From: an uncultured Candidatus Saccharibacteria bacterium
Lineage (GTDB): Bacteria; Patescibacteriota; Minisyncoccia; Phycocordibacterales; UBA9973
Reading direction: 5' to 3'
NCBI GenBank assembly: GCA_964423445.1
Contig: CAYREQ010000002.1
Location: 1 to 58,640 of the forward strand
Length of the DNA: 58,640 bases
Positions 4,929-58,378 of the stretch are shown here, piece by piece. The stretch's first letter is position 1; each line of letters opens with the position of its first letter. The position numbers were made by a program, and so were the translations under genes. The notes beneath the pieces were generated by a model that had not been told where the DNA came from, did no database searches, and saw only the letters and a program-made list of their open reading frames with translations.

Positions 4929-5768
4929 ATGAAAAAATATAAACCTACAAGTAAATCAAGGAGACAAATGACGAATATCAATTACCGTGATATTTTGACT
5001 AAGACTACTCCTACAAAGTCACTGACTCATGGATTCAAGCGTTCTGTCGGACGAAACAGTGCTGGACGTATCACTATGCGACACAAAGGTGGTGGACACA
5101 AGCGTCTTTTCCGAGAGGTGGACTTTTTATATAACAAAAAAGATATTCCAGCAAAAATAAAATCTATAGAATACGACCCAAACCGTTCAGCATTTATCGG
5201 TCTTGCTGTATACAAAGATGGAGAAAAGAGATATGTGATATTACCACAGACAGTAAAACCAGGAGATGATTTTCTTGTATCTGAGAAAGCTCCACTTACA
5301 CCAGGAAACAGACTACCATTAAAAAATATTCCAGTTGGAACATTTATTTACAATATTGAATTAAAGCCAAATGGTGGTGCAAAAGTAGGACGAGGCGCAG
5401 GAGTATTTGCTCAAGTAGTAGCAAATGACAAAGGATATACAAATATAAAAATGCCTTCTTCTGAAGTTCGAAAGGTAAATGAAAAATGTTTTGCTTCTAT
5501 TGGCTCTGTGTCAAACGAAGAACACTTTTTGGAAAACTATGGTAAAGCTGGACGAAGTCGCTGGAAGGGTATACGTCCTACAGTCCGAGGTACAGCCATG
5601 AATCCTGTAGACCACCCATACGGAGGAGGTGAAGGACGACAAGGCCGAGGTACAAAGAGACCAAAGACTATGTGGGGTAAAGTGACTGGTGGCCGAAAGA
5701 CCAGAAGTCCAAAGAAATATTCAAACGTATTCATCGTTTCTCGCCGAAAGACAGGAAAGAATAAATAA
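4929..5768 (+). CDS. rplB: 50S ribosomal protein L2
   Basis: 279 aa with 'RHKGGGHKR' and 'MNPVDHPYGGGEG'. AGGAG lies upstream. Confidence 0.97.
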   Translation: MKKYKPTSKSRRQMTNINYRDILTKTTPTKSLTHGFKRSVGRNSAGRITMRHKGGGHKRLFREVDFLYNKKDIPAKIKSIEYDPNRSAFIGLAVYKDGEKRYVILPQTVKPGDDFLVSEKAPLTPGNRLPLKNIPVGTFIYNIELKPNGGAKVGRGAGVFAQVVANDKGYTNIKMPSSEVRKVNEKCFASIGSVSNEEHFLENYGKAGRSRWKGIRPTVRGTAMNPVDHPYGGGEGRQGRGTKRPKTMWGKVTGGRKTRSPKKYSNVFIVSRRKTGKNK

Positions 5769-5774
5769 AAAATT

Positions 5775-5807
5775 AAAAAACACAGAGCATACAAGCTCTG
5801 TGTTTTT
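5775..5807 (+). terminator. intrinsic terminator directly after rplB
   Basis: AAAAAACACAGAGC-ATACAA-GCTCTGTGTTTTT perfect hairpin plus T-run. Confidence 0.85.
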
Positions 5808-5809
5808 CG

Positions 5810-5837
5810 TTGTGTTATTTTATTTTTATGGTATAAA
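5810..5837 (+). promoter_or_regulatory. candidate promoter of small-ORF island
   Basis: TTGTGT, 16-nt spacer, TG-n-TATAAA (5832-5837). Confidence 0.4.
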
Positions 5838-6247: not shown

Positions 6248-7030
6248 ATGACATGGGCATTTAAAAGACAGATTTCTTATGTGGCTATACTTATATTGTT
6301 TTTTGGAGCTTTCGGATTTTTGATAATCTATCCTAGGTTTAATGTAGCTCCTACTTGTACAGATAATAAACAAAATGGCCTAGAGACAGGTATAGATTGC
6401 GGAGGTATGTGTGCACGAGCTTGCATGAATCAAGTAGATCAAATATCAATAATTTGGTCTAGAATTTTCAAAGTTGTCCCTGGGCGTTATAATGCAGTGG
6501 CTTATCTAACTAATCACAATAAAAATACAGCTATAGAAAAAATAAGTTATAGGTTTCGTTTTGCAGATGAAAATAATATTTATATAGGTAAGCGTGAAGG
6601 TACTACTTATGTACCTCCGTCTGGAAATTTTGCAGTTTTTGAACCAGCGATAGATATGGGTAATTCTACTCCTGTGTATGTGTCTTTTGAATTTACTCAA
6701 AATCCAGTCTGGGTTTTTGTACCAGAAGAAAAAATGAATCAAGTAAAAATATTTGCTTCAAATATAAATTTATTTGACGCAGACACAAAGCCACGACTAT
6801 CTGCAGTTTTAAAAAATAATTCTCTGTTTTCTGTGCCCGATGTAAATGTCATAGCTATTTTATATGATTCTCTGGGTAATGCAGTATCAGCTAGCCGTAC
6901 TTATGTAGATGTTTTGAAAGCTGAAGAAAGTAAAGATTTAAATTTTACTTGGCCAGAACCTTTTGATAAGACTGTGGTGAAACAGGAAATAATTCCTATT
7001 TATAATATCTTCTCAGTAAAATTAAAATAA
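6248..7030 (+). CDS. membrane-anchored hypothetical protein with Cys-rich motif
   Basis: ATG lies 6 nt after TATACT (6236-6241). N-terminal TM helix, then 'CTDNKQNGLETGIDCGGMCARAC'. Confidence 0.7.
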   Translation: MTWAFKRQISYVAILILFFGAFGFLIIYPRFNVAPTCTDNKQNGLETGIDCGGMCARACMNQVDQISIIWSRIFKVVPGRYNAVAYLTNHNKNTAIEKISYRFRFADENNIYIGKREGTTYVPPSGNFAVFEPAIDMGNSTPVYVSFEFTQNPVWVFVPEEKMNQVKIFASNINLFDADTKPRLSAVLKNNSLFSVPDVNVIAILYDSLGNAVSASRTYVDVLKAEESKDLNFTWPEPFDKTVVKQEIIPIYNIFSVKLK

Positions 7031-8161
7031 ATGGCAGAAAAGGTAATAAAAAGAATAGATTGGCTTTTAGTTCTTTTTATACTTCCTATAATTTTAGCTG
7101 GACTAGTCACAATGAAGAGCTTTTCGGCTTTGGAGGGAGGTAGTGTTTTTTTTAATAAACAAATTATCTGGGTGGCTGTTTCTTTTTTGGTTTTCTTTGT
7201 GTGTTCTTTTATAGACTTTAGATTTTTAAAGAGAACAGATGTCCTCGTCTCTATTTTTCTTTTTGCTTCATTTATTTTGTTTTTATTATTTGTTTTGGGG
7301 CATGTATCAAATGGAGCAAAAAGCTGGTTTAACTTTAGCTATTTTTCTTTTCAACCAGTAGACATGATGAAATTGGTTTTGGTCTTAATTTTAGCCAAAT
7401 ATTTTTCTAGGCGTCACGTAGAGATAGGGGATATAAAACATATATTTATTTCTGGATTCTATGCTTTTGTTCCTTTAGTTTTAGTTTTACTACAGCCAGA
7501 TTTTGGTTCAGCGATGATTATCGGTTTTATATGGCTTGGTATGGTATTAGTCTCTGGCATTAGAAAGACACATCTTTTTTTAGTTTTTGCTGGAGGGTTA
7601 TTAGTCTTTTTATCACTTTGGTTTTTTGTTTTTGCGCCGTATCAAAAGGCTCGTATTATGAATTTTATAAACCCACTCGCTGATATGCATGGCACAGGGT
7701 ATAATGCTCTTCAGTCCACTATCGCTGTAGGCTCAGGTCAAATTTTTGGTAAAGGTCTTGGATTCGGTACACAATCAAGATTAAAGTTTTTACCAGAAGC
7801 ACAGACTGATTTCGTCTTTGCGGCTTTTTCTGAAGAGTGGGGTCTCATAGGTAGCCTACTAATACTAGTATTGTATTCTTTGGTAATTTGGAGAATTCTT
7901 TACAATACGACTCTGGGTTCTTCCAATTTTGAAATTCTTTTCGGCATGGGAATGGCTATATTTTTTATGAGTCAAATATTTATAAATGTGGGTATGAATA
8001 TAGGTATAATGCCTATCACTGGTATACCACTTCCTTTTATGAGCTATGGAGGTTCACACTTACTTACTGAGTTTGCCGGGCTAGGAATTTTGATGAGTAT
8101 GCGCAGATATTCTAGAATTGCTCATAGAGATCAAATGAAAAATGAATTTTTAGGTATTTAA
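7031..8161 (+). CDS. SEDS-family FtsW/RodA peptidoglycan glycosyltransferase
   Basis: 376 aa, polytopic, with 'PEAQTDFVFAAFSEEWGLIGS' and 'LPFMSYGGS'. Confidence 0.9.
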   Translation: MAEKVIKRIDWLLVLFILPIILAGLVTMKSFSALEGGSVFFNKQIIWVAVSFLVFFVCSFIDFRFLKRTDVLVSIFLFASFILFLLFVLGHVSNGAKSWFNFSYFSFQPVDMMKLVLVLILAKYFSRRHVEIGDIKHIFISGFYAFVPLVLVLLQPDFGSAMIIGFIWLGMVLVSGIRKTHLFLVFAGGLLVFLSLWFFVFAPYQKARIMNFINPLADMHGTGYNALQSTIAVGSGQIFGKGLGFGTQSRLKFLPEAQTDFVFAAFSEEWGLIGSLLILVLYSLVIWRILYNTTLGSSNFEILFGMGMAIFFMSQIFINVGMNIGIMPITGIPLPFMSYGGSHLLTEFAGLGILMSMRRYSRIAHRDQMKNEFLGI

Positions 8162-17854: not shown

Positions 17855-17896
17855 AATATAAAATTTATTAATTAATAATAAGCATTTAATGCTTTG

Positions 17897-17983
17897 CGGA
17901 GCCGGTGAGATTCGAACTCACGGTCCCGATTAAGGGACGACGGTTTAGTAAACCGTTGATTTAAACCACTCATCCACGGCTCC
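17897..17983 (-). tRNA. class II tRNA-Ser; anticodon reads ACU
   Basis: Acceptor GGAGCCG/CGGCTCC, G73, D-stem GAT/ATC, long variable arm GTCCC..GGGAC, T-loop TTCGAAT. Anticodon loop TTACTAA (comp. 17945-17951). Confidence 0.75.
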
Positions 17984-18053: not shown

Positions 18054-18142
18054 GGAGCCGTGTCAGAGTGGTCTAACGTACCTCTTTGCTAAAGAGGCAG
18101 GGGCTTCAAAACCCCTCGACGGTTCGAATCCGTCCGGCTCCG
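18054..18142 (+). tRNA. class II tRNA-Ser(GCU)
   Basis: Same acceptor stem as the neighbouring tRNA, G73, anticodon loop TTGCTAA (GCT at 18088-18090), variable arm AGGGG..CCCCT, T-loop TTCGAAT. The D-stem pairs poorly by eye. Confidence 0.8.
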
Positions 18143-18163
18143 CAGGTATGCTATATTATTCTT

Positions 18164-25232: not shown

Positions 25233-25240
25233 TATAAGAT

Positions 25241-25274
25241 AAAGCCCCAAATTGTATTTACAATTTGGGGCTTT
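25241..25274 (+). terminator. perfect 14-bp hairpin after pilB
   Basis: AAAGCCCCAAATTG-TATTTA-CAATTTGGGGCTTT, with only a short T-tail. Confidence 0.6.
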
Positions 25275-25278
25275 AAAG

Positions 25279-25322
25279 TTATCCACAGGTCAGCCTTTTA
25301 TAAGTAATTTTAATAGTACAAT
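25279..25322 (+). promoter_or_regulatory. TTATCCACA-N29-TACAAT promoter module upstream of receiver gene
   Basis: Perfect DnaA-box 9-mer at 25279-25287, 29-nt gap, TACAAT at 25317-25322, 7 nt before ATG 25330. Confidence 0.55.
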
Positions 25323-28684: not shown

Positions 28685-28703
28685 TTCTATTAGTTCTAAA
28701 TTT

Positions 28704-28742
28704 AAAGACCACCCAGGGCAACCTAGGTGGTCTTTATTTTTG
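28704..28742 (+). terminator. intrinsic terminator after pilin 1
   Basis: AAAGACCACCCAGG-GCAA-CCTAGGTGGTCTTT followed by a T-run. Confidence 0.8.
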
Positions 28743-28786
28743 TGTTTGCTATAATATATATAGCTTAAAATTAAAATTTATATATC

Positions 28787-30738: not shown

Positions 30739-31377
30739 ATGAAAATAAATAATAACAAAAATGGATACACTATAATTGAAACCATGATTGCGGTTTCTCT
30801 TTTTTTGGTTATTACTATGGCTGGAATGGCTGCTCTATTGAATGCAAATTTACTTCAAAGAAAATCACAAAACATGCGTTCCATTATGGATAATTTGAAT
30901 TTTATCATGGAGGATATGTCTAGAAATATAAGAGTTGGTTATAATTATAGATGTTATGATAGTGGTACTTGGAGTGAGTCTTTTATTGCTCCAAATCCTG
31001 ATTTAAATACTCCGCAAGATTGTACAGGGGGAGGAGTGATTGTTTTTGAAGAAGCTCATGGTCACACACCCTCAAGTATAAATTCACCAGACCCAGATGC
31101 AAATGATCAATGGGCATACAAAATTGAAAGTCCAGATGGTTTTTTGCCTTACAATATATATAAATCTATAGATGGTGGTTCATCTTGGGTTCAATTAAAC
31201 CCAGACGAAGTCACCCTCGACCCATCTTCTTCTTTTGTGGTAACTGGATCTGAACCTACACCAAATATGGAGCAACCATATGTAACTATAAAATTAGTGG
31301 GTGAAATAACTTATAAAAATGTTGTGACTCCTTTTATTTTGCAAACATCAGTATCGCAGAGAATAATTGATATATAA
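30739..31377 (+). CDS. minor pilin/pseudopilin
   Basis: 212 aa with 'NKNGYTIIETMIAVSLF'. Confidence 0.75.
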   Translation: MKINNNKNGYTIIETMIAVSLFLVITMAGMAALLNANLLQRKSQNMRSIMDNLNFIMEDMSRNIRVGYNYRCYDSGTWSESFIAPNPDLNTPQDCTGGGVIVFEEAHGHTPSSINSPDPDANDQWAYKIESPDGFLPYNIYKSIDGGSSWVQLNPDEVTLDPSSSFVVTGSEPTPNMEQPYVTIKLVGEITYKNVVTPFILQTSVSQRIIDI

Positions 31378-31378
31378 T

Positions 31379-31813
31379 ATGAAAAATATTTTTATAAAAC
31401 AAAATAAAGGTTTTACTCTTGTAGAGACTCTGGTAGGTTTACTTATTTTTACGTTGACGATTATGGCTTCTATGTCTGTATTGGGTTCAAGTATCTCTAG
31501 TACAAATTATGCAAAACAAAAAATAGTAGCAGAGTATTTAGCCCAAGAGGGTATAGAATATGTGAGAAATCAACGTGATAACTATATTTTATTTGTTAGC
31601 GATGGGAGCGGACTTTCATGGGATCAATTTAGGGATGCTAAGACAGCTTTGATATCACCACCTCAACCTGAAGACACTACTTTTTCTAGATCAATTCAAA
31701 AAATTGTAGTAGATGCAGATCAAATAAAAATCATTTCTTCTGTTTCATGGATGCAAGGTTCTGGTTTAAAAACTGTTACTTTTTCAGAAAATTTATTTAA
31801 TTGGGTAGAGTAA
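31379..31813 (+). CDS. minor pilin/pseudopilin
   Basis: ATG lies 1 nt after the previous stop. 'KQNKGFTLVETLVGLLIF'. Confidence 0.75.
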   Translation: MKNIFIKQNKGFTLVETLVGLLIFTLTIMASMSVLGSSISSTNYAKQKIVAEYLAQEGIEYVRNQRDNYILFVSDGSGLSWDQFRDAKTALISPPQPEDTTFSRSIQKIVVDADQIKIISSVSWMQGSGLKTVTFSENLFNWVE

Positions 31814-31815
31814 TT

Positions 31816-32241
31816 ATGATAAAAATATTTAAAAAAAATAAAGGTTTTGCAATTCTTTTTGCAGTGACGCTCTCAAGTATATTGTTGGCAATTACTTTGG
31901 GTGTTACAGAGATAGCTTTTAGAGAAATAAAATTTAGTACTTCAGCTACAGCTACAAATGAAGCTTTTTTTGCAGCAGACACAGGCACAGAATTAGTCCT
32001 TTTTAATGACAAGACGGATACCTATCCTGCTGTTATTGGAAGTATAGAGTCTTGGGGTCCAATTATTATTTCAAATATAGGTGGGCAGAATTCTAGTTGT
32101 GCAATTGTGACTATAACCAAAGATTATACTGGACCTTCTATGATTACTACGATTGTGTCAAAAGGTTATAACCTTGGTGATGCTATGTGTGAATCTACAA
32201 ACCCAAATAGAATTGAACGTGAAATTGAAACTAGATATTAA
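31816..32241 (+). CDS. pilin-like protein lacking Glu5 (PilX/ComGG-like)
   Basis: ATG at 31816. 'KKNKGFAILFAVTLSSILLA' has a hydrophobic N-terminus but no E5. Confidence 0.6.
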   Translation: MIKIFKKNKGFAILFAVTLSSILLAITLGVTEIAFREIKFSTSATATNEAFFAADTGTELVLFNDKTDTYPAVIGSIESWGPIIISNIGGQNSSCAIVTITKDYTGPSMITTIVSKGYNLGDAMCESTNPNRIEREIETRY

Positions 32242-34325
32242 TGTTTGGTATGGGTAAGCTAGAAGATAAAAAAAGAATACAGAATCTAAGGCAAGAAATT
32301 CAAAGATTGCGTGATCTTTATCATGTACAAGATGCCCCAGATGTCACAGATGATGTGTATGATTCTTTAACACGAGAATTAAAAGAACTTATAAAAAAGT
32401 ATCCAGAGTTTGATGATCCAAATTCACCAGAGAATAGAGTCGGTGGTCGTCCACTAGAGAAATTTGTTAAAGTCAGTCATCAGACTAGAATGCTCTCATT
32501 GAATGATGCTTTCTCATATGAAGAGCTTTACGAATGGGAGAAGAGAATTAAAAAACTTTTGACTACAAATTCTAAATTAAATTATTTTTGCGAGATTAAA
32601 TTTGATGGCTTGGCAGCATCGCTCATATATGAAAATGGTGTTTTTACAAGAGGAGCTACAAGAGGTGATGGATTTATCGGTGAAGATATTACTCAGAATT
32701 TGAAAACAATAAAATCAATACCACTAAAATTAAAATCTCCTTATCCTAGTTTTGTGGAAGTTCGCGGGGAGGCACTTGTCAGTAAAAAAATGTTGGTAAA
32801 ATTAAACTCTATTAATGAAAAATTAGGTAAACCACTTTTTGCAAACACTAGAAATGTAGCTGCTGGTAGTCTAAGGCAATTAGACCCAAAACTAGCGTCA
32901 GAAAGGAATTTAGATTTTTTTGCTTATGACATAATAGACAAAAAATCTAATTTAAAAAATCACTCAGAAGAACATAAATTTCTTAAAGATTTAGGATTCC
33001 AAGTTGAAAAGATAGAAGCTAAATGCAAAGACCTAGAAGAGGTAATAGACTTTATTAAAAAATTTGAAAAAATTAGACCAGATTTTCCATATGGTACTGA
33101 TGGTATAGTGATATCTGTAGACGACTTAAAATCTCAAGAAGTTTTAGGTATAGTGGGTAAAGCTCCACGTTATATGGTGGCTTTTAAATATCCTGCTGAG
33201 AAAGCGACCACTATAGTAAAAGATATAAAAGTAAACGTAGGACGCACTGGAGTGCTCACTCCACTAGCTCTTTTTGAGCCGACAAGAGTAGCAGGTTCAT
33301 TGGTCTCAAAAGCTACTCTGCATAATATGGATCAGATAGAGAGATTGGGTCTGCGTATAGGGGATACTGTAGTGATAGAAAAAGCTGGAGATGTAATTCC
33401 AAAAGTAGTGGAAGTTTTGTTAAAAATGAGGACAGGCAAAGAGAAGAAATTTAAAATGCCGATAAATTGTCCAGTATGTGAGACTTTAGTTGAAAAAAAA
33501 GGCGTGAAAACAGAGTCGATAAAAAATTCTGCCGCTTTACCCGCAAGCGGGCTCCGACACGGACAAAATTTTTCACCGACTCTGTTTTCAGTAGCTTATT
33601 ACTGTAAGAATCCTAAATGCCCTGCTAAAAATGAGAGATATTTAGATCACTTTGTATCCGTTTTTGATATATATGAACTTGGACCAAAAGTATTGAGACG
33701 CTTCAAAGACGAAGGCCTTATCACAGATGCGGGAGATATATTTACTTTAGAAAAAGAAGATATAGCTACACTCGAAAGATTTGGAGAAAAATCAGCAGAG
33801 AACATAATCAAAGAAATAGAAGAAAAAAAGAAAATTCCACTCTCAAAGTTTTTGTGGGCTTTGGGCATACTGCACGTAGGGGAGGAGACAGCTAGAGATC
33901 TAGCGACGCATTTTGGAACTTTAGATAAACTAATATTATCAGTCAAAGATGATAAAGATGAAGTAGACAGCATAGAGAACATAGGTCCGGCTGTATTAAA
34001 AAGTCTACATGATTTTTTCAATGATAAAAATAATTTAAATTTTATAAAAAAATTACAAGGAAACGGTGTAGTCATAGAAAAAGCTGAAAAGAGAAAAGCT
34101 GGGAAATTTACAGGTAAGAGTTTTGTTTTGACCGGCACATTGTCTACCATGTCTCGTGAAATAGCCAAAGAGCGTATTGTCACTCTTAGTGGAAAGGTAG
34201 TGGGTTCGGTATCAAAAAATACTACTTATGTAGTAGCAGGCGTAGAGCCGGGCTCTAAATTAAAAACAGCAGAAAAACTCGGAGTAAAAATATTAAATGA
34301 GAAAGAATTTCTCAGCATGCTATAA
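32241..34325 (+). CDS. ligA: NAD-dependent DNA ligase LigA (with 29-aa insertion in the Zn finger)
   Basis: 694 aa with adenylation motif 'CEIKFDGLA', Zn finger CPVC...CKNPKC, and HhH and BRCT regions. Confidence 0.95.
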   Translation: MFGMGKLEDKKRIQNLRQEIQRLRDLYHVQDAPDVTDDVYDSLTRELKELIKKYPEFDDPNSPENRVGGRPLEKFVKVSHQTRMLSLNDAFSYEELYEWEKRIKKLLTTNSKLNYFCEIKFDGLAASLIYENGVFTRGATRGDGFIGEDITQNLKTIKSIPLKLKSPYPSFVEVRGEALVSKKMLVKLNSINEKLGKPLFANTRNVAAGSLRQLDPKLASERNLDFFAYDIIDKKSNLKNHSEEHKFLKDLGFQVEKIEAKCKDLEEVIDFIKKFEKIRPDFPYGTDGIVISVDDLKSQEVLGIVGKAPRYMVAFKYPAEKATTIVKDIKVNVGRTGVLTPLALFEPTRVAGSLVSKATLHNMDQIERLGLRIGDTVVIEKAGDVIPKVVEVLLKMRTGKEKKFKMPINCPVCETLVEKKGVKTESIKNSAALPASGLRHGQNFSPTLFSVAYYCKNPKCPAKNERYLDHFVSVFDIYELGPKVLRRFKDEGLITDAGDIFTLEKEDIATLERFGEKSAENIIKEIEEKKKIPLSKFLWALGILHVGEETARDLATHFGTLDKLILSVKDDKDEVDSIENIGPAVLKSLHDFFNDKNNLNFIKKLQGNGVVIEKAEKRKAGKFTGKSFVLTGTLSTMSREIAKERIVTLSGKVVGSVSKNTTYVVAGVEPGSKLKTAEKLGVKILNEKEFLSML
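33505..33590 (+). repeat. in-frame palindromic insertion element, copy 1 (in ligA)
   Basis: Perfect 14-bp arms TGAAAACAGAGTCG (33505-33518) / CGACTCTGTTTTCA (33577-33590) enclose a 56-nt core shared with pheT. Confidence 0.85.
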
Positions 34326-35054: not shown

Positions 35055-35077
35055 AAATATATTATAACAAAAATATG

Positions 35078-35162
35078 CGGAGGCGGAGAGATTCGAACTC
35101 TCGATACCTTTCGGTATGCCACCTTTCCAAGGTGGTGGAATAAACCGCTATCCGACGCCTCC
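35078..35162 (-). tRNA. class II tRNA-Ser(GGA)
   Basis: Acceptor GGAGGCG/CGCCTCC, G73, anticodon loop TTGGAAA, variable arm CATACC..GGTATC, T-loop TTCGAAT. Confidence 0.9.
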
Positions 35163-40526: not shown

Positions 40527-41243
40527 ATGAGTGAAGAAAATAAAAAAGGAACAATACACCCACTAAATTTATTAGCCCAAGAGGCTTATAAAGTTTTTTC
40601 TGATATGGGTTTTGAAATTGCAAATGGTAGAGAGCTGGAGAGTGAATGGTATAACTTTGATGTTTTAAATGTTCCCAAAGATCACCCTGCACGAGACATG
40701 CAAGACACTTTTTGGATAAAAGAAAAAGATGGTGTACAGAAAAATGTTTTACGTACACACACCACATCAGTGACTGCAAGAGCAATAGAGCAAGCAGGTA
40801 AAGAAGGTAGGATGCCTTGTGCTTTTATTTCCATTGGAAAAGTTTTTAGAAATGAAGCTACTGACGCTACTCATGAAATGCAATTTTTCCAGATAGATGG
40901 ATCTATGATTGGTGAAAATATTTCTGTAGCAAATTTGAAAGGCGTACTTACAGAATTTTATAAAAAAATGCTAGGAGAAGATGTGGAGATAGAATTTAGA
41001 CCGAGCTTTTTTCCTTTCACTGAGCCTTCTTTTGAAATATTTGCCAAGTTCAATGGTAAGTGGCTCGAGATGATGGGTGGTGGAATGTTGCACCCAAATG
41101 TACTACGTAACATAGGGCTAGACGGAGATAAGGTCCAAGGTTTTGCTTTTGGTGGAGGACTAGACCGTATAGCAATGATAAAGTGGAATATTCCAGATGT
41201 CCGTCTTTTTTATCAAGGAGATTTACGCTTAAATCAATTTTAA
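40527..41243 (+). CDS. pheS: phenylalanine-tRNA ligase alpha subunit (catalytic core only)
   Basis: 238 aa with 'PKDHPARDMQDTF', 'LRTHTT' and 'GFAFGGGLDRIAM'. Lacks the N-terminal coiled-coil arm. Confidence 0.93.
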   Translation: MSEENKKGTIHPLNLLAQEAYKVFSDMGFEIANGRELESEWYNFDVLNVPKDHPARDMQDTFWIKEKDGVQKNVLRTHTTSVTARAIEQAGKEGRMPCAFISIGKVFRNEATDATHEMQFFQIDGSMIGENISVANLKGVLTEFYKKMLGEDVEIEFRPSFFPFTEPSFEIFAKFNGKWLEMMGGGMLHPNVLRNIGLDGDKVQGFAFGGGLDRIAMIKWNIPDVRLFYQGDLRLNQF

Positions 41244-41247
41244 TAAA

Positions 41248-43050
41248 ATGAAAGTATCTTACAATTGGCTAAAATGGTATATACCCGACGCGCCTGAGGC
41301 ACACAAGCTTGCAGATATTTTCAACTACCATCTTTGTGAAGTTGAGACTGTAGAAGAAAAAGATGGCGACTTTATATTAGATATGAAGATTTTGCCAAAT
41401 CGAGCGCATGACCTACTTTCTCATATGGGAATAGCACGTGAGGTATCTTCACTTTTAAATATAAAATACGTAGATCCTACACCTAAATATAAAATTCCAG
41501 AATCTAAACCTACAAATTTAAAAATAAATATTACTACAAATAAAGACAGGAGGCATGTGGGCAGAATAGTCCGTAATGTAAAAGTAGGCCCTAGTCCAGA
41601 ATGGGTGGTAAAACACTTGGCTTCAATAGGGCAGAGAAGTATAAACAATATAGTAGATGCGACAAACCTGACTATGTTTGATTGTGGACAGCCTACACAT
41701 GCTTTTGATTTAAATAAAGTTGAGGGCGGGGAGCTAAATATAAGAGATGCAAAAAATGGAGAAAAAGTAACCCTGTTAACTGGTGAAGAAAAAGAACTAA
41801 AAGAGGGTATGATAGCAATATGTGATGGTGAAGGTAATATTTTAGATACAGGTATAAAAGGTGGAAAACACGCAGAGATAACTACAGCTACCACAGACCT
41901 GATTTTAGAAGCTGACAACTTTGACCCAGTATTTGCTCGTAAAACAGGGCAAGCTTTAAATATTTTCACAGATGCTAGAAAGCGTTTTGAAAATGATCTG
42001 TCTCCAGAGCTCGCACCTTTTGCTATGATGGAGCTTTCAGCTCTAATAGCAGAGATGTGCCCTGAGGCGACTTTTGAAGAAATAGTAGATACTTACCCAC
42101 AAAAACAGACAGAAAAAAAACTTTCTTTTTCAACTGAAAAAATTTCAAAGATTTTAGGTGTACCAGTTTCTGTAATTGAAATAGGTAATATTTTAGAGAG
42201 ATATAAAATTGGATATAAAAATGAAGGGGATAAGTTTGAGATAGTCGTGCCACCAATGCGTATGGATTTGGAAATACAAGAAGATATGGCAGAAGAAATT
42301 GGCAGAATTATGGGCTATGACAAAGTAAAAGGAACTATACCAAAGATAGATTTTAAACCAAAAGTAAATGAAACTTATGAAAAAATCGTCTGGGCTAGAA
42401 ATAAACTCATGAGTGATGGTTATAGTGAAGTCATGACTTACACTTTTAGAAATACTGGTGAAGTGGAAGTCATGCAGAGTGCATCTGATAAAAAGTTTTT
42501 GCGTACAAATTTGAGTGATGGATTAAAAGATAGTTTGAAATTGAATAAAATAAATGCTCCATTATTAGGAACTAGTGAGATAAAAATTTTTGAAATTGGA
42601 ACTGTATGGTGCCCTGGGGAAGAAATGCATATTGCCTATGGAAACAAGAAAGAAGTAAAAGAAATGAAACTTGAAAATTTTATTTCACAAGAAGAGAAAA
42701 ATTTCGTCGCTTTACCCGCTAGCGGGCTCCGACACGAGCAAAATTTTTCTCTTCTTGCTCCATTTAAAATGTGGTCACTTTTTCCATTTGTCGCACGTGA
42801 TGTGGCTGTGTGGGTGCCAGAATCTACTAGTAGCGATGAAGTGGCTAAACTTATAAAAGAAAACATGGGGGATTTAGTGGTAAAAGGTCCAGATTTGTTT
42901 GACTCATTTACAAAAGAAAATCGCACTTCTTATGCTTTCAAGCTAGTTTTTCAGTCTTTTGAACGAACTCTCACAGATGCTGAGGTAAACGAGGTAATGG
43001 CCAAAATAGCTGAAAAAATAAAGGATAATCAGGATTGGCAGGTCAGATAA
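41248..43050 (+). CDS. pheT: phenylalanine-tRNA ligase beta subunit (short form, with insertion)
   Basis: 600 aa with 'MKVSYNWLKWYI', the B3/4 and B5 regions, and C-terminal 'FPFVARDVAVWV'. No OB-fold B2 domain is visible. Confidence 0.93.
   Translation: MKVSYNWLKWYIPDAPEAHKLADIFNYHLCEVETVEEKDGDFILDMKILPNRAHDLLSHMGIAREVSSLLNIKYVDPTPKYKIPESKPTNLKINITTNKDRRHVGRIVRNVKVGPSPEWVVKHLASIGQRSINNIVDATNLTMFDCGQPTHAFDLNKVEGGELNIRDAKNGEKVTLLTGEEKELKEGMIAICDGEGNILDTGIKGGKHAEITTATTDLILEADNFDPVFARKTGQALNIFTDARKRFENDLSPELAPFAMMELSALIAEMCPEATFEEIVDTYPQKQTEKKLSFSTEKISKILGVPVSVIEIGNILERYKIGYKNEGDKFEIVVPPMRMDLEIQEDMAEEIGRIMGYDKVKGTIPKIDFKPKVNETYEKIVWARNKLMSDGYSEVMTYTFRNTGEVEVMQSASDKKFLRTNLSDGLKDSLKLNKINAPLLGTSEIKIFEIGTVWCPGEEMHIAYGNKKEVKEMKLENFISQEEKNFVALPASGLRHEQNFSLLAPFKMWSLFPFVARDVAVWVPESTSSDEVAKLIKENMGDLVVKGPDLFDSFTKENRTSYAFKLVFQSFERTLTDAEVNEVMAKIAEKIKDNQDWQVR
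42688..42757 (+). repeat. in-frame palindromic insertion element, copy 2 (in pheT)
   Basis: Perfect 17-bp arms CAAGAAGAGAAAAATTT (42688-42704) / AAATTTTTCTCTTCTTG (42741-42757) around the core shared with ligA. Confidence 0.85.
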
Positions 43051-43056
43051 GTATAT

Positions 43057-43085
43057 TTGCATTAAAATTCTAGACGTGTTATAAT
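43057..43085 (+). promoter_or_regulatory. near-consensus promoter at start of pheT-gyrB island
   Basis: TTGCAT (43057-43062), 17-nt spacer, TG-n-TATAAT (43080-43085). Confidence 0.6.
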
Positions 43086-43213
43086 AAAAGAGTAAAAATG
43101 AGATCTATTCTATAGGTTTCTCACGTGACCCCAAAAGGGCCATTTTGTTCTTTATTGCTATTCTAGGGGAATAGCCAAGCACCAGGGTTTCTGGTAAATA
43201 GGAGAAAACGCCA

Positions 43214-43399
43214 ATGCATAATTCGAGTGGGGAAGCTCAGGCCCGAGCCTTGAGTAAAAATGAAGTTAAGCAAGGTGTCGTTGACATTATCGACGACGAA
43301 ACAAAGCCATCACCTGTATCGTTTCCCAACGACAGGGAAAAAGATAACGGGCATTATTGCTCATCAATAAACAGATGGGGAGCACCTGGATTGCTTTAA
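43214..43399 (+). CDS. small-ORF cassette 1 (61 aa, acidic)
   Basis: TAGGAG lies 10 nt upstream. '...KQGVVDIIDDETKPSP...REKDN...' resembles cassette 3. A +strand-specific terminator follows. Confidence 0.4.
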   Translation: MHNSSGEAQARALSKNEVKQGVVDIIDDETKPSPVSFPNDREKDNGHYCSSINRWGAPGLL

Positions 43400-43420
43400 T
43401 TCTCCAAAACATCTTGATAA

Positions 43421-43460
43421 GGGTCGTCGCGAAATATTCGTGGCGGCCCTTTTACTTTTT
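43421..43460 (+). terminator. +strand-specific intrinsic terminator
   Basis: 12-bp stem GGGTCGTCGCGA/TCGTGGCGGCCC containing three G:U pairs (would be C:A on the other strand), then TTTTACTTTTT. Confidence 0.75.
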
Positions 43461-43547
43461 CCACATTATATTTGTATATTTTTTCATATGTGTTATATTA
43501 AAAATATGAGTAGAAACGCCCAAATAAATAAAAGTTCAATTTGTTTT

Positions 43548-43661
43548 AAGCAAATTATTTGCTCTTCATTCTAGAAGACTGATATTTGCGCTGTAAAAAA
43601 ATTCAAAAGTTACAACCTAAATACCAGCCTTCTAGAAATAGAAGTCTGGTATTGTTCTTTA
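43548..43661 (+). repeat. repeated leader unit A (promoter-like region plus terminator hairpin)
   Basis: Aligns by eye with 44056-44166 with few substitutions and three 1-nt indels. Ends with hairpin ATACCAGCCTTCTA..TAGAAGTCTGGTAT plus TTGTTCTTTA. Confidence 0.8.
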
Positions 43662-43751
43662 TAGAGTTTGCTGTTTAAACTCTTTTCATCGGAAACTCCA
43701 CCTAGGAGTAAACAATGTTCCAGAAATATTCTGGAGAGGAGAAAAAAAGCA

Positions 43752-43934
43752 ATGTGTTTTTTGTCAGAAGATGACGACTGCCCCGAGCGTCGTAAAGACT
43801 GGGAAGCTCAAAAAAGGGCTTCGGTTCTAGCATCTCAAATTGCTCACAGATCAAAAGTTGTAAGCGAACCTGAAATTCAGCTTCAACAACGTGAAACAGA
43901 TCAATCGTCTAAAGAATCAGACGAAACAATCTAG
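43752..43934 (+). CDS. small-ORF cassette 2 (60 aa, acidic)
   Basis: MCFLSEDDDCPERRKDW... from an internal ATG with GGAGAGGAG upstream. A 19-codon SD-led uORF (43715-43774) precedes it in the -1 frame. Confidence 0.35.
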   Translation: MCFLSEDDDCPERRKDWEAQKRASVLASQIAHRSKVVSEPEIQLQQRETDQSSKESDETI

Positions 43935-44055
43935 CAATAGACATCAAGGGGAAAATCAAATTACGGGCTGTGCGAGATTCGTCACAGCCCAAAAATTCAA
44001 ACTTAAATTTAAAATGAAACAAAATATAAATACAAATAAAAATTTTACATTTACA

Positions 44056-44166
44056 AAGCAAATTTGTTGCTCTTCATTTAGAAGGCTGATATTTGTGCTG
44101 TAAAAATTTTCAAAAGTTACAACCTAAATACCAGTCTTCTAAAAAAGACTGGTATTTTGTTCTTTA
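44056..44166 (+). repeat. repeated leader unit B
   Basis: Second copy of 43548-43661. Hairpin ATACCAGTC..GACTGGTAT plus TTTTGTTCTTTA, then TAGGAG. Confidence 0.8.
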
Positions 44167-44181
44167 CTAGGAGTGTGAATT

Positions 44182-44352
44182 ATGTGTGATATGGATTATC
44201 CTTGGCCAGATATGACCAAGAAAGAAGTCGTGGTAGGGGTGGATGACACAGATTGTCCACCTAAAGAATTATCAAGTTCGGAGCCTGAAGAAAAAGACAA
44301 CAAACGAAAACCCGTCTCGGGTAAAAGAGAAAAACCGTACTTTGTGCGGTAA
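44182..44352 (+). CDS. small-ORF cassette 3 (56 aa, acidic then basic)
   Basis: TAGGAG lies 8 nt upstream. MCDMDYPWPDMTKKEVVVGVDDTDCPPKELSSSEPEEKDNKRKPVSGKREKPYFVR. A strong terminator follows. Below the track cutoff. Confidence 0.45.
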   Translation: MCDMDYPWPDMTKKEVVVGVDDTDCPPKELSSSEPEEKDNKRKPVSGKREKPYFVR

Positions 44353-44360
44353 ATCAAATT

Positions 44361-44394
44361 TGGGCTAGTGCTATGCACATGGCCCATTTTTTTT
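44361..44394 (+). terminator. intrinsic terminator after cassette 3
   Basis: TGGGC...GCCCA stem with an inner GTGC/GCAC pairing, followed by T8. Confidence 0.7.
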
Positions 44395-44453
44395 ACAAAT
44401 TTAGCCATAAAACCTATAAAATACAAGGTAAAATTGACTAGCTTATGCTATAA

Positions 44454-46547
<2,094 letters not shown>

Positions 46548-58258: not shown

Positions 58259-58273
58259 AATAAATTTTAAATA

Positions 58274-58307
58274 AAAAAACACCCCAATGGGGTGTTTTTT
58301 TATTTTT
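58274..58307 (+). terminator. intrinsic terminator
   Basis: AAAAAACACCCC-AAT-GGGGTGTTTTTTT. Confidence 0.85.
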
Positions 58308-58378
58308 GTGGTATATATGTTATTGGTACTAGTTCGACTCTTTTTGAGTCTTTGAGAATATGTTGGTGGAGTAACAAT

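Follow-up and report, generated by a model that had tools for sequence, protein, structure and literature searches.

The ligA locus and its insertion

The DNA analysed here, a window of 58,640 nucleotides (nt) from contig CAYREQ010000002.1 of an uncultured Candidatus Saccharibacteria bacterium, carries in ligA, the gene of NAD-dependent DNA ligase, an in-frame palindromic element that lies between the second and third cysteines of a putative zinc finger and has a second copy in pheT. The features of the ligA locus are listed below (R1 is a covariance model of the element, used to find divergent copies; L065 is the DNA encoding the closest LigA representative, P0001).

32241-34325, + strand: ligA, NAD-dependent DNA ligase, 694 amino acids, host gene (open reading frame [ORF], Pfam, match to E. 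coli LigA)
33468-33479, + strand: putative zinc ligands Cys410 and Cys413, CPVC (sequence reading; aligned to the CPxC of LigA relatives)
33603-33620, + strand: putative zinc ligands Cys455 and Cys460, C-KNPK-C (sequence reading; AlphaFold2 strand 452-455 against 416-420)
33504-33590, + strand: ligA copy of the element, 87 nt, 29 codons, residues 422-450 (inverted repeat, folding, R1 score, empty L065 site)
33505-33531, + strand: 5' outer-stem arm, including the perfect 13-mer 33506-33518 (27 nt, 89% complementary)
33564-33590, + strand: 3' outer-stem arm, including the perfect 13-mer 33577-33589 (27 nt, 89% complementary)
33522-33574, + strand: family core, 89% identical to 42697-42749
33534-33539, + strand: junction GCTTTA, part of the family core
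33540-33551, + strand: inner hairpin CCCGCAAGCGGG, part of the family core
33552-33560, + strand: junction CTCCGACAC, part of the family core

The ligA product matches the Pfam models DNA_ligase_aden, DNA_ligase_OB, HHH_2, HHH_5 and BRCT as well as E. coli LigA (2OWO; E = 5e-160), and the short PF03119 model of the zinc-binding domain found no match in the window LigA in the Pfam scan because the insert splits the zinc finger. The Cys4 pattern C-x2-C ... C-x4/5-C is present between the OB and HhH domains, and its cysteines (C410, codon 33468-33470; C413, 33477-33479; C455, 33603-33605; C460, 33618-33620) align with the CPxC...C-x(4-5)-C pattern seen in about 134 of 150 LigA relatives; we read the four as a putative zinc finger of the PF03119 type. 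A first-pass annotation, made from the letters alone, had given the distance from CPVC to the third cysteine as 41 residues, which is the spacing between Cys413 and Cys455, and the last ligand pair as C-x5-C, which is actually C-x4-C (C-KNPK-C).

The same annotation had put the canonical distance between the second and third ligands at roughly 12 to 15 residues and had called for an alignment of orthologs. Among the best 150 LigA sequences out of 1.84 billion representative proteins, this spacing is 14 in 108 and 12 to 13 in 10, with a few at 19 to 21, so that the canonical spacing indeed prevails. The alignment of the window LigA with E. coli LigA is broken at this point (query 419/459 versus chain 417/431). 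The closest representative, P0001, with 71% identity, reads CPTCGGKIEKKELVAYYCVNPKC with a spacing of 13, and the L065 DNA has the uninterrupted site GAGAAAAAAGAATTG|GTTGCTTATTAT. Because most relatives keep the canonical spacing, the alignment breaks here and the L065 site is uninterrupted, the block is a real insertion of 28 to 29 codons, and it splits the Cys4 finger between Cys413 and Cys455 as had been proposed. Its annotated extent of 87 nt holds to within about one codon, which is the reliability of the boundaries; the net gain over the empty P0001/L065 site is 28 codons (84 nt), and one boundary codon may thus be native to ligA.

The block encodes the peptide VKTESIKNSAALPASGLRHGQNFSPTLFS and contains a perfect 13-bp inverted repeat (33506-33518 and 33577-33589). 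Both arms of the longer outer stem fall inside it, in agreement with the first-pass annotation. As RNA it folds at -37.0 kcal/mol, compared with -19.4 +/- 3.1 kcal/mol for 200 dinucleotide shuffles (z = -5.77), none of which did as well (0/200). R1 scores it at 89.6 bits (E = 2e-21).

A second copy in pheT

The other copy of the window lies in the gene for the beta subunit of phenylalanyl-tRNA synthetase.

41248-43050, + strand: pheT, phenylalanyl-tRNA synthetase beta subunit (ORF; Pfam B3_4, B5 and FDX-ACB; PDB matches)
42679-42765, + strand: pheT copy of the element, codon-aligned, encoding FISQEEKNFVALPASGLRHEQNFSLLAPF (extent from the family alignment)

The central 53 nt of the two copies are 89% identical (33522-33574 versus 42697-42749), and both are read in the same frame, giving the shared peptide ALPASGLRH(G/E)QNF; a 21-mer of the core occurs twice in the window versus 0 times expected. 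The pheT copy has a perfect 17-bp stem (42688-42704 and 42741-42757) unlike the ligA stem in sequence, a minimum free energy of -31.6 (z = -4.4) and an R1 score of 86.6 bits, and it sits in the linker that leads into the FDX-ACB domain (start at residue 510). In an R1 search of the 58.6-kb window, the ligA and pheT copies were the only family members. The other hairpins that it picked up (1425-1487, 5757-5825, 25236-25280, 28691-28747, 58263-58310 and others) are intergenic and terminator-like and were rejected as members of the family.

GC skew is positive over nearly all of positions 1-56000, which probably makes the + strand the leading one; it carries both copies and both host genes.

A family of hairpin elements in related genomes

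A scan for the exact 19-base core, CCCGCNNGCGGGCTCCGACAC, in one genome per species (185,579 species) gave 64 loci. Thirty-eight come from low-GC assemblies of Patescibacteria, which carry the labels Paceibacterota, Nomurabacteria, 'Saccharibacteria' or Patescibacteria group; individual related assemblies have 2 to 5 exact-core copies, and all 38 have in common, within a long stem, the flanks ...AAAATTYYGCCGCTTTA before the core and GGAC..AATTTTT... after it. Matches in high-GC genomes (Microbacterium, Streptomyces and similar) have in common just the 19 specified bases, with differing flanks, and were discarded as chance. The host proteins of the element-bearing genomes are 60 to 92% identical to one another and to the window proteins, which points to one fairly narrow lineage whatever the record labels. 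The related Patescibacteria genomes hold about 40 copies in total, and the block is foreign to ligA, as first annotated: a LigA with 71% identity has the empty site, and the core recurs in pheT and in these genomes.

Thirty-six copies align without gaps over 95 columns and have one architecture, namely a variable complementary outer stem, a proximal stem (AAAAATTCT / AGAATTTTT) and a conserved non-palindromic centre that runs from the junction GCTTTA(C) through a short GC-rich inner hairpin to the junction CTCCGACAC. The centre, CTTTA-CCCGC..GCGGG-CTCCGACAC, is invariant in these copies. The outer stem has 29 pairs and one bulge, and 82.6% of its cells are paired, compared with 60% in column shuffles and 31 to 46% when partners are slid; double-change cells number 270 versus 85 in shuffles. 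The distal arms are variable, with 4 to 5 standard pair types per column and four in most columns. R1 also found divergent copies (L012:4898-4999, L030:4474-4576 and L117:1891-1988) in which the junctions are kept and the inner hairpin is changed. A direct repeat of 5 nt, CT(T/A/C)CG, marks the two ends of many copies, in the same frame at each; since these repeats are identical at different sites, they belong to the element and not to the host. The window ligA copy is without them.

Two other accounts of the arms were rejected. The distal arms are not a property of the site around a core that alone is mobile, as the same distal consensus (CTTCGCAGAT... / ...ATCTGCTTCG) stands at different genes and the arms at the LigA site differ among relatives. 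Nor are they copied from host flanks, the whole palindrome being extra in filled versus empty comparisons of PheS, UvrB and LigA, with methyltransferase ambiguous.

Known families gave no counterpart. A gathering-threshold Rfam scan of the whole window found no family for the element, and a permissive Rfam 15 scan of the region gave generic hairpin matches of at most 25 bits, far under gathering scores. A scan of viral contigs for the core gave 0 matches, with no sign of a phage vector. The literature on the candidate phyla radiation (CPR)/Patescibacteria, as far as our incomplete coverage goes and without proving novelty, describes no such element.

Host genes, reading frames and empty sites

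Thirty-five copies lie inside long ORFs, and in every one of them the host frame stays open with no stop codon. The hosts, assigned by Pfam for most, are LigA (window and L019, same site), PheT (window and four related genomes, L003, L031, L035 and L050, same site), CCA-adding enzyme (4 genomes), MnmA (3 genomes), PheS, LeuRS, UvrA, UvrB, UvrC, PurH, a TypA-like GTPase, XerC-like, MutY-like and ELP3-like radical SAM proteins, a methyltransferase, an FAD oxidase at two different sites and an IleRS-like protein assigned by motif only; one further copy, in an ORF that continues into dnaB, is upstream of the DnaB domains. Copies are spread over the whole genome, and about 1 in 8 (five or six) are intergenic, mostly between convergent genes, which is roughly the non-coding share expected of compact genomes (assumed to be about 10%).

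The copies encode ALPASGLRH, LYPQAGSDT, the variant FSRLTLPRV or, in antisense, VGARLRVKR (in XerC, LeuRS and one LigA), depending on the frame. Of the frames across the element that are open in some copy, each is open in only 50 to 78% of them, whereas the host frame is open in all genic copies, which points to translation; one antisense frame is closed throughout. Because three sense frames and one antisense frame are used, the element is conserved at the level of nucleotides and not of peptides, and any open frame will serve. Both orientations are found at one protein site in LeuRS (L047 versus L040) and in LigA (window and L019 versus L117), which could reflect independent insertions or inversion between the arms. 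The L058 gene for a NifS-like aminotransferase (6545-7915) holds two copies whose frames differ, one at 7102-7194 read as LYPQAGSDA and one at 7720-7814 read as ALPASGLRH.

Filled and empty versions of a site could be compared in several genes: the PheS of L035 carries the element, and those of the window, L003, L050 and L031 do not; the UvrB of L024 carries it, and three relatives lack it; for UvrC, L005 and L030 have the insert and L061 has the bare site; the methyltransferase contains it in L015 and is without it in L047; and one FAD-oxidase site has an empty relative. The net gain of filled over empty sites is 63 to 87 nt, always a multiple of 3. No target-site duplication was found in the comparisons of LigA, PheS, UvrB, UvrC and methyltransferase.

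Two of these hosts show further variation. In UvrA, the element lies between LNFILEK and MGVEWD in L030 and L061, and the 92% identical UvrA of L005 has at that site a different palindrome of similar total length, AAGAAGAATTCT-19 nt-AGAATTCTTCTT, which indicates fast turnover there. The window pheS (40527-41240), whose peptide IKEKDGVQKNVLRT is empty where the L035 PheS carries the element, exceeds three other relatives by 3 residues at that site, with QKN at the end as in the 5' part of the element; the extra residues may be the footprint of a lost copy.

Amplification-based metagenomes can yield inverted chimeras, and a palindrome might for that reason be suspected of being an assembly or amplification artefact. 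We give this virtually no credence: the same codon-aligned sites are filled in independent assemblies (NCBI metagenome-assembled genomes, JGI and ENA), which refutes it, and the copies are always in frame, with the divergence between them compensated.

The LigA zinc-finger tip as an insertion hotspot

The LigA site was compared across 83 genes of the lineage, including 80 relatives with 45 to 74% identity from metagenomes (L066-L145). All 83 have a single open frame across it. The distance between the second and third cysteines ranges from 12 to 64 residues (at most 15 in 23 genes, 16 to 24 in 23 and 25 to 64 in 37), and the long inserts are strong hairpins, with -0.36 kcal/mol per nt versus -0.10 at short sites. 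A loop of similar length carried uniformly across the lineage with no palindrome, which the first-pass annotation had named as the observation that would speak against it, is thus not what these genes have.

By sequence, the hairpin inserts form about 15 clusters, and the tip of the LigA zinc finger is an insertion hotspot. The present family occupies it in sense in the window and L019 and in antisense in L117. L072 has a close variant that clusters with the family, with the core ...TTAC-hairpin-ACCTTCCG..., and L075 has an L072-like core layout but clusters elsewhere with L080. A sister cluster (L071, L107 and L137) has the core ...TTGAC-hairpin-ACTTACGCG..., a type also present in the UvrC of L030, and a large unrelated cluster encodes ...SKGPR(F/I)SG..PGQTISQRTL.... 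Some LigA loops of 17 to 21 residues would be leftovers of lost elements, as in L081, with KKGVETKNSS versus KKGVKTESIKNS in the window. In the LigA fragment P0146 (75% identity over the matched stretches), the spacing is 74 residues with two modules of the KNS...NS type, which looks like nested or tandem hairpin elements.

Such variation in length shows that the site tolerates it (23 of the 83 genes have spacings of 16 to 24, and a few representatives 19 to 21), as would be seen if the loop had arisen in situ, as an ordinary lengthening of the zinc finger specific to this lineage, with an incidental palindrome. This explanation is barely tenable, and is refuted by the 53-nt core recurring at a distance of 9 kb, in pheT, as well as in unrelated genes of genomes elsewhere; moreover, the fold energy is 5.8 standard deviations beyond shuffles, and a LigA with 71% identity lacks the loop.

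Translation versus removal of the insert

The first-pass annotation had left two outcomes for the block, a tolerated 29-residue loop or removal after transcription. The stem mismatches bear on this choice. The stem cells of the aligned copies comprise 710 Watson-Crick pairs, 47 A·C and 8 G·U. For the copies whose frame gives ALPASGLRH, 25 of 38 A·C pairs have their C at codon position 2, a count to be read as indicative rather than as a formal test, since the copies are partly related by descent. A C at this position turns Phe, Leu, Ile or Val codons into Ser, Pro, Thr or Ala codons, so that hydrophobic codons are avoided. Coding constraints would thereby override stem pairing, as translation predicts, and A·C rather than G·U mismatches at codon position 2 favour translation over removal and oppose selection on an mRNA hairpin.

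AlphaFold2, run on the window LigA with a 62-sequence alignment, gave a mean predicted local distance difference test (pLDDT) score of 90 and a predicted template modelling score of 0.72. The sole segment with a pLDDT below 50 is residues 425-448; it is flanked by the strands 416-420 and 452-455, which pair with each other, and the zinc-finger hairpin is kept. The prediction with the block in place, a check that the annotation had proposed, thus shows an intact zinc-finger hairpin in which 425-448 alone is disordered. The insert is predicted to project where the beta-hairpin of the zinc finger turns, at its tip, with the second zinc ligand before it and the third after it, and to fit the LigA fold as a loop, as the pheT copy would in its linker before FDX-ACB. 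Most likely, then, the element is translated in LigA into a predicted disordered loop rich in Ser, Pro, Gly, Ala, Asn and Gln.

Removal or skipping of the segment during expression, by intron-like excision or by ribosomal bypassing between the CTNCG repeats, would exploit several traits of the element: a stable hairpin whose base brings exon-like ends together, the CT(T/A/C)CG repeat at both ends of many copies in the same frame, and a canonical spacing of 12 to 13 residues given back by precise excision. We nevertheless consider it very unlikely. The frame is kept in 35 of 35 genic copies and in 83 of 83 LigA genes, which would be needless if the segment were excised, and the mismatch pattern tracks codon position. 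An RNA-level signal cannot work in both orientations, so the antisense copies could not share it. There is no match to a group I or II intron or a ribozyme, and 87 nt is far too small for one. The window ligA copy itself is without CTNCG repeats, and no stop codon follows the take-off site, unlike in known bypass elements. The tolerated loop is the better supported of the two outcomes, and nothing favours removal over it.

Proposed origin and maintenance of the element

Altogether, we think it probable that the ligA block is a copy of a dispersed palindromic hairpin element of Patescibacteria, about 87 nt long, inserted in frame and translated as a tolerated loop in the manner of the Rickettsia palindromic elements (RPEs). 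We propose that insertion would be roughly random across the genome and that selection would retain those genic copies that bring whole codons and no stop codon into permissive loops of 25 to 30 residues. The arms most likely stay complementary through DNA-level events, either intrastrand template switching or correction of one arm of the quasi-palindrome by the other, a process known from E. coli and T4. Template switching would account for double 'compensatory' changes made in one step as well as for the scarcity of G·U, and selection on an mRNA hairpin is an unlikely cause of the arm pairing. The element is most likely a tolerated selfish one.

Several points weigh against this interpretation. 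Translation is something we infer from sequence and predicted structure. No conserved terminal repeat or transposase was found with the element copies; an autonomous parent insertion sequence (IS) was not noticed in the loci read, no systematic search having been run for it; and, with no target-site duplication either, mobility is deduced from distribution. Orientation is skewed, with about 34 canonical genic copies in sense versus 3 in antisense (L028, L040 and L117), and this despite two antisense frames being open in the core; peptide-level selection, an insertion bias or an RNA-level role could produce the skew. The exact 19-base core used as bait inflates the apparent conservation of the core in the copies from the genome scan. 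CTTTA, found in 36 of 36 copies, and the G that precedes it, in 35 of 36, are both outside the search pattern, and the invariance of CTTTA is hence unbiased. The junctions are more conserved than expected of a decaying selfish insert, which hints at a recognition function, ongoing homogenisation or recent spread.

The junctions GCTTTAC and CTCCGACAC might accordingly be the recognition site of a dedicated enzyme that copies or exchanges hairpin cores in either orientation, or the hairpins might be kept for some action on the transcript or on single-stranded DNA; we attach a small but real chance to this idea. A core-exchanging enzyme would explain why different clusters and both orientations meet at the LigA tip and both orientations at the LeuRS site. 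No Y1/HUH gene was seen adjoining any element copy. If true, ultra-small bacteria would have a new mobility system, guided by structure, that writes peptide loops into their essential genes.

Another proposal is that the element is a functional structured nucleic acid under selection, either a protein recognition site (e.g., for a hairpin-specific single-strand DNA enzyme) or a signal for transcript processing, stability or pausing. Its architecture is that of a functional fold, with a covarying outer stem, inner hairpins that are replaced (L012, L030, L117, L072 and L075) and conserved single-stranded junctions, GCTTTAC and CTCCGACAC; the same site is filled with a near-identical core in orthologs just 62 to 73% identical (PheT in 5 genomes, CCA-adding enzyme in 4 and MnmA in 3), and the sense-strand bias is strong. 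We hold it to be unlikely nonetheless, since many close relatives are without copies and show no sign of compensation, and since selection for a sense-strand RNA helix would leave the reverse of the stem mismatches seen, which are A·C rather than G·U. Antisense and sense copies occupy the same sites (LeuRS, L040 and L047; LigA, L117 and the window), about 14 unrelated hairpin clusters can take the place of the element at the LigA site, no Rfam family matches it, and the conservation of the core is partly an ascertainment effect of the search pattern.

Comparison with known elements

In Rickettsia, RPEs lie in frame within many unrelated genes as palindromic repeats, and the peptides that they add are considered compatible with the protein folds (PMC10969869). 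The present element is like them a short dispersed palindrome of a small genome that lies in frame in housekeeping genes and also between genes (PMC10969869), and no transposase has been identified for either. It differs in its host (Patescibacteria versus Alphaproteobacteria), in its length (about 87 nt versus about 150 bp for RPEs as first reported), in its conserved centre and arms that diverge with compensation, in its use of several frames and both orientations, and in that one site, the LigA zinc-finger tip, has about 15 clusters of hairpin inserts. Dispersed copies, a hairpin, in-frame positions in unrelated ORFs and predicted compatibility with the fold, the features that define this kind of element, are all found. 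By this analogy the element would be an unreported counterpart of RPEs in Patescibacteria, of the same kind and not a member of RPE-1 to RPE-10; sequence homology is unlikely.

[quoted passage not shown] Bacterial MITEs (Correia/NEMIS, ERIC, Coxiella QMITE and others) are similarly small, non-coding, hairpin-forming and dispersed. Unlike in MITEs, the termini vary between copies, so that conserved terminal inverted repeats were not found, and neither were target-site duplications in the filled versus empty comparisons. Some bacterial MITEs, such as QMITE and ERIC, form in-frame fusions with host ORFs (PMC10969869; see also PMC5896051).

The short GC-rich hairpin with conserved unpaired flanking nucleotides is reminiscent of the repetitive extragenic palindromic (REP) sequences of the REP/BIME-RAYT system and of the hairpin ends of IS200/IS605 elements, which transpose as single strands by an HUH mechanism. 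Recognition in these systems depends on structure plus flanking bases, and REPs are extragenic and 20 to 40 nt long. The TTAC within the junction resembles the IS608 target. The long outer stem of the element has no counterpart there. Translational bypass elements (the T4 gene 60 gap and the mitochondrial 'byp' of Magnusiomyces) are also hairpin inserts in coding sequence, bounded by matching codons and able to spread within a genome. They break the frame, either by carrying a stop codon or because their length is not divisible by three, and must therefore be skipped; the frame is open through every genic copy of the present element. Inteins and self-splicing introns likewise place a foreign segment in essential genes at conserved sites; 29 codons is far below intein size, there are no splicing motifs, and no known catalytic RNA fold, intron or ribozyme, was matched in Rfam.

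Translated selfish repeats in essential proteins are best documented in Rickettsia, with scattered cases of in-frame MITEs, e.g., in Coxiella. An unrelated family with the same habit in reduced, host-dependent Patescibacteria suggests a general outcome, in which, with hardly any non-coding DNA left, hairpin repeats survive as protein loops. What sets the family apart is the unrelated lineage, the architecture of conserved centre and variable arms, and the multi-cluster hotspot in a metal-binding module. The LigA site may serve as a natural experiment on the tolerance of such a module and on the gain, correction and loss of palindromes. In practice, these inserts break short domain models, as with the lost zinc-binding model of LigA, inflate the apparent divergence of CPR proteins and could pass for lineage-specific functional loops.

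Neighbouring features of the window

Between pheT and gyrB lies a gene-poor stretch of 1.4 kb (43051-44477) that has no Rfam match and holds a pair of direct repeats, each about 110 nt long, lying 508 nt apart. The repeats consist of a 67-nt part with 91% identity (43572-43638 and 44079-44145) preceded by 45 nt with 76% identity (43526-43570 and 44034-44078), and each is upstream of a small acidic ORF (at about 43750-43934 and 44182-44352). ARAGORN called a tRNA-Ser(GGA) at 35077-35162 on the - strand, which Rfam missed at its gathering score, and a tRNA-Ser with the unusual anticodon ACT at 17896-17983, also on the - strand, back to back with tRNA-Ser(GCT) at 18054-18143. Directly upstream of ligA (30739-32241, + strand), three short ORFs have the prepilin-like N-termini GYTIIE, GFTLVE and GFAILF, and this motif suggests a cluster of type IV pilins or pseudopilins.

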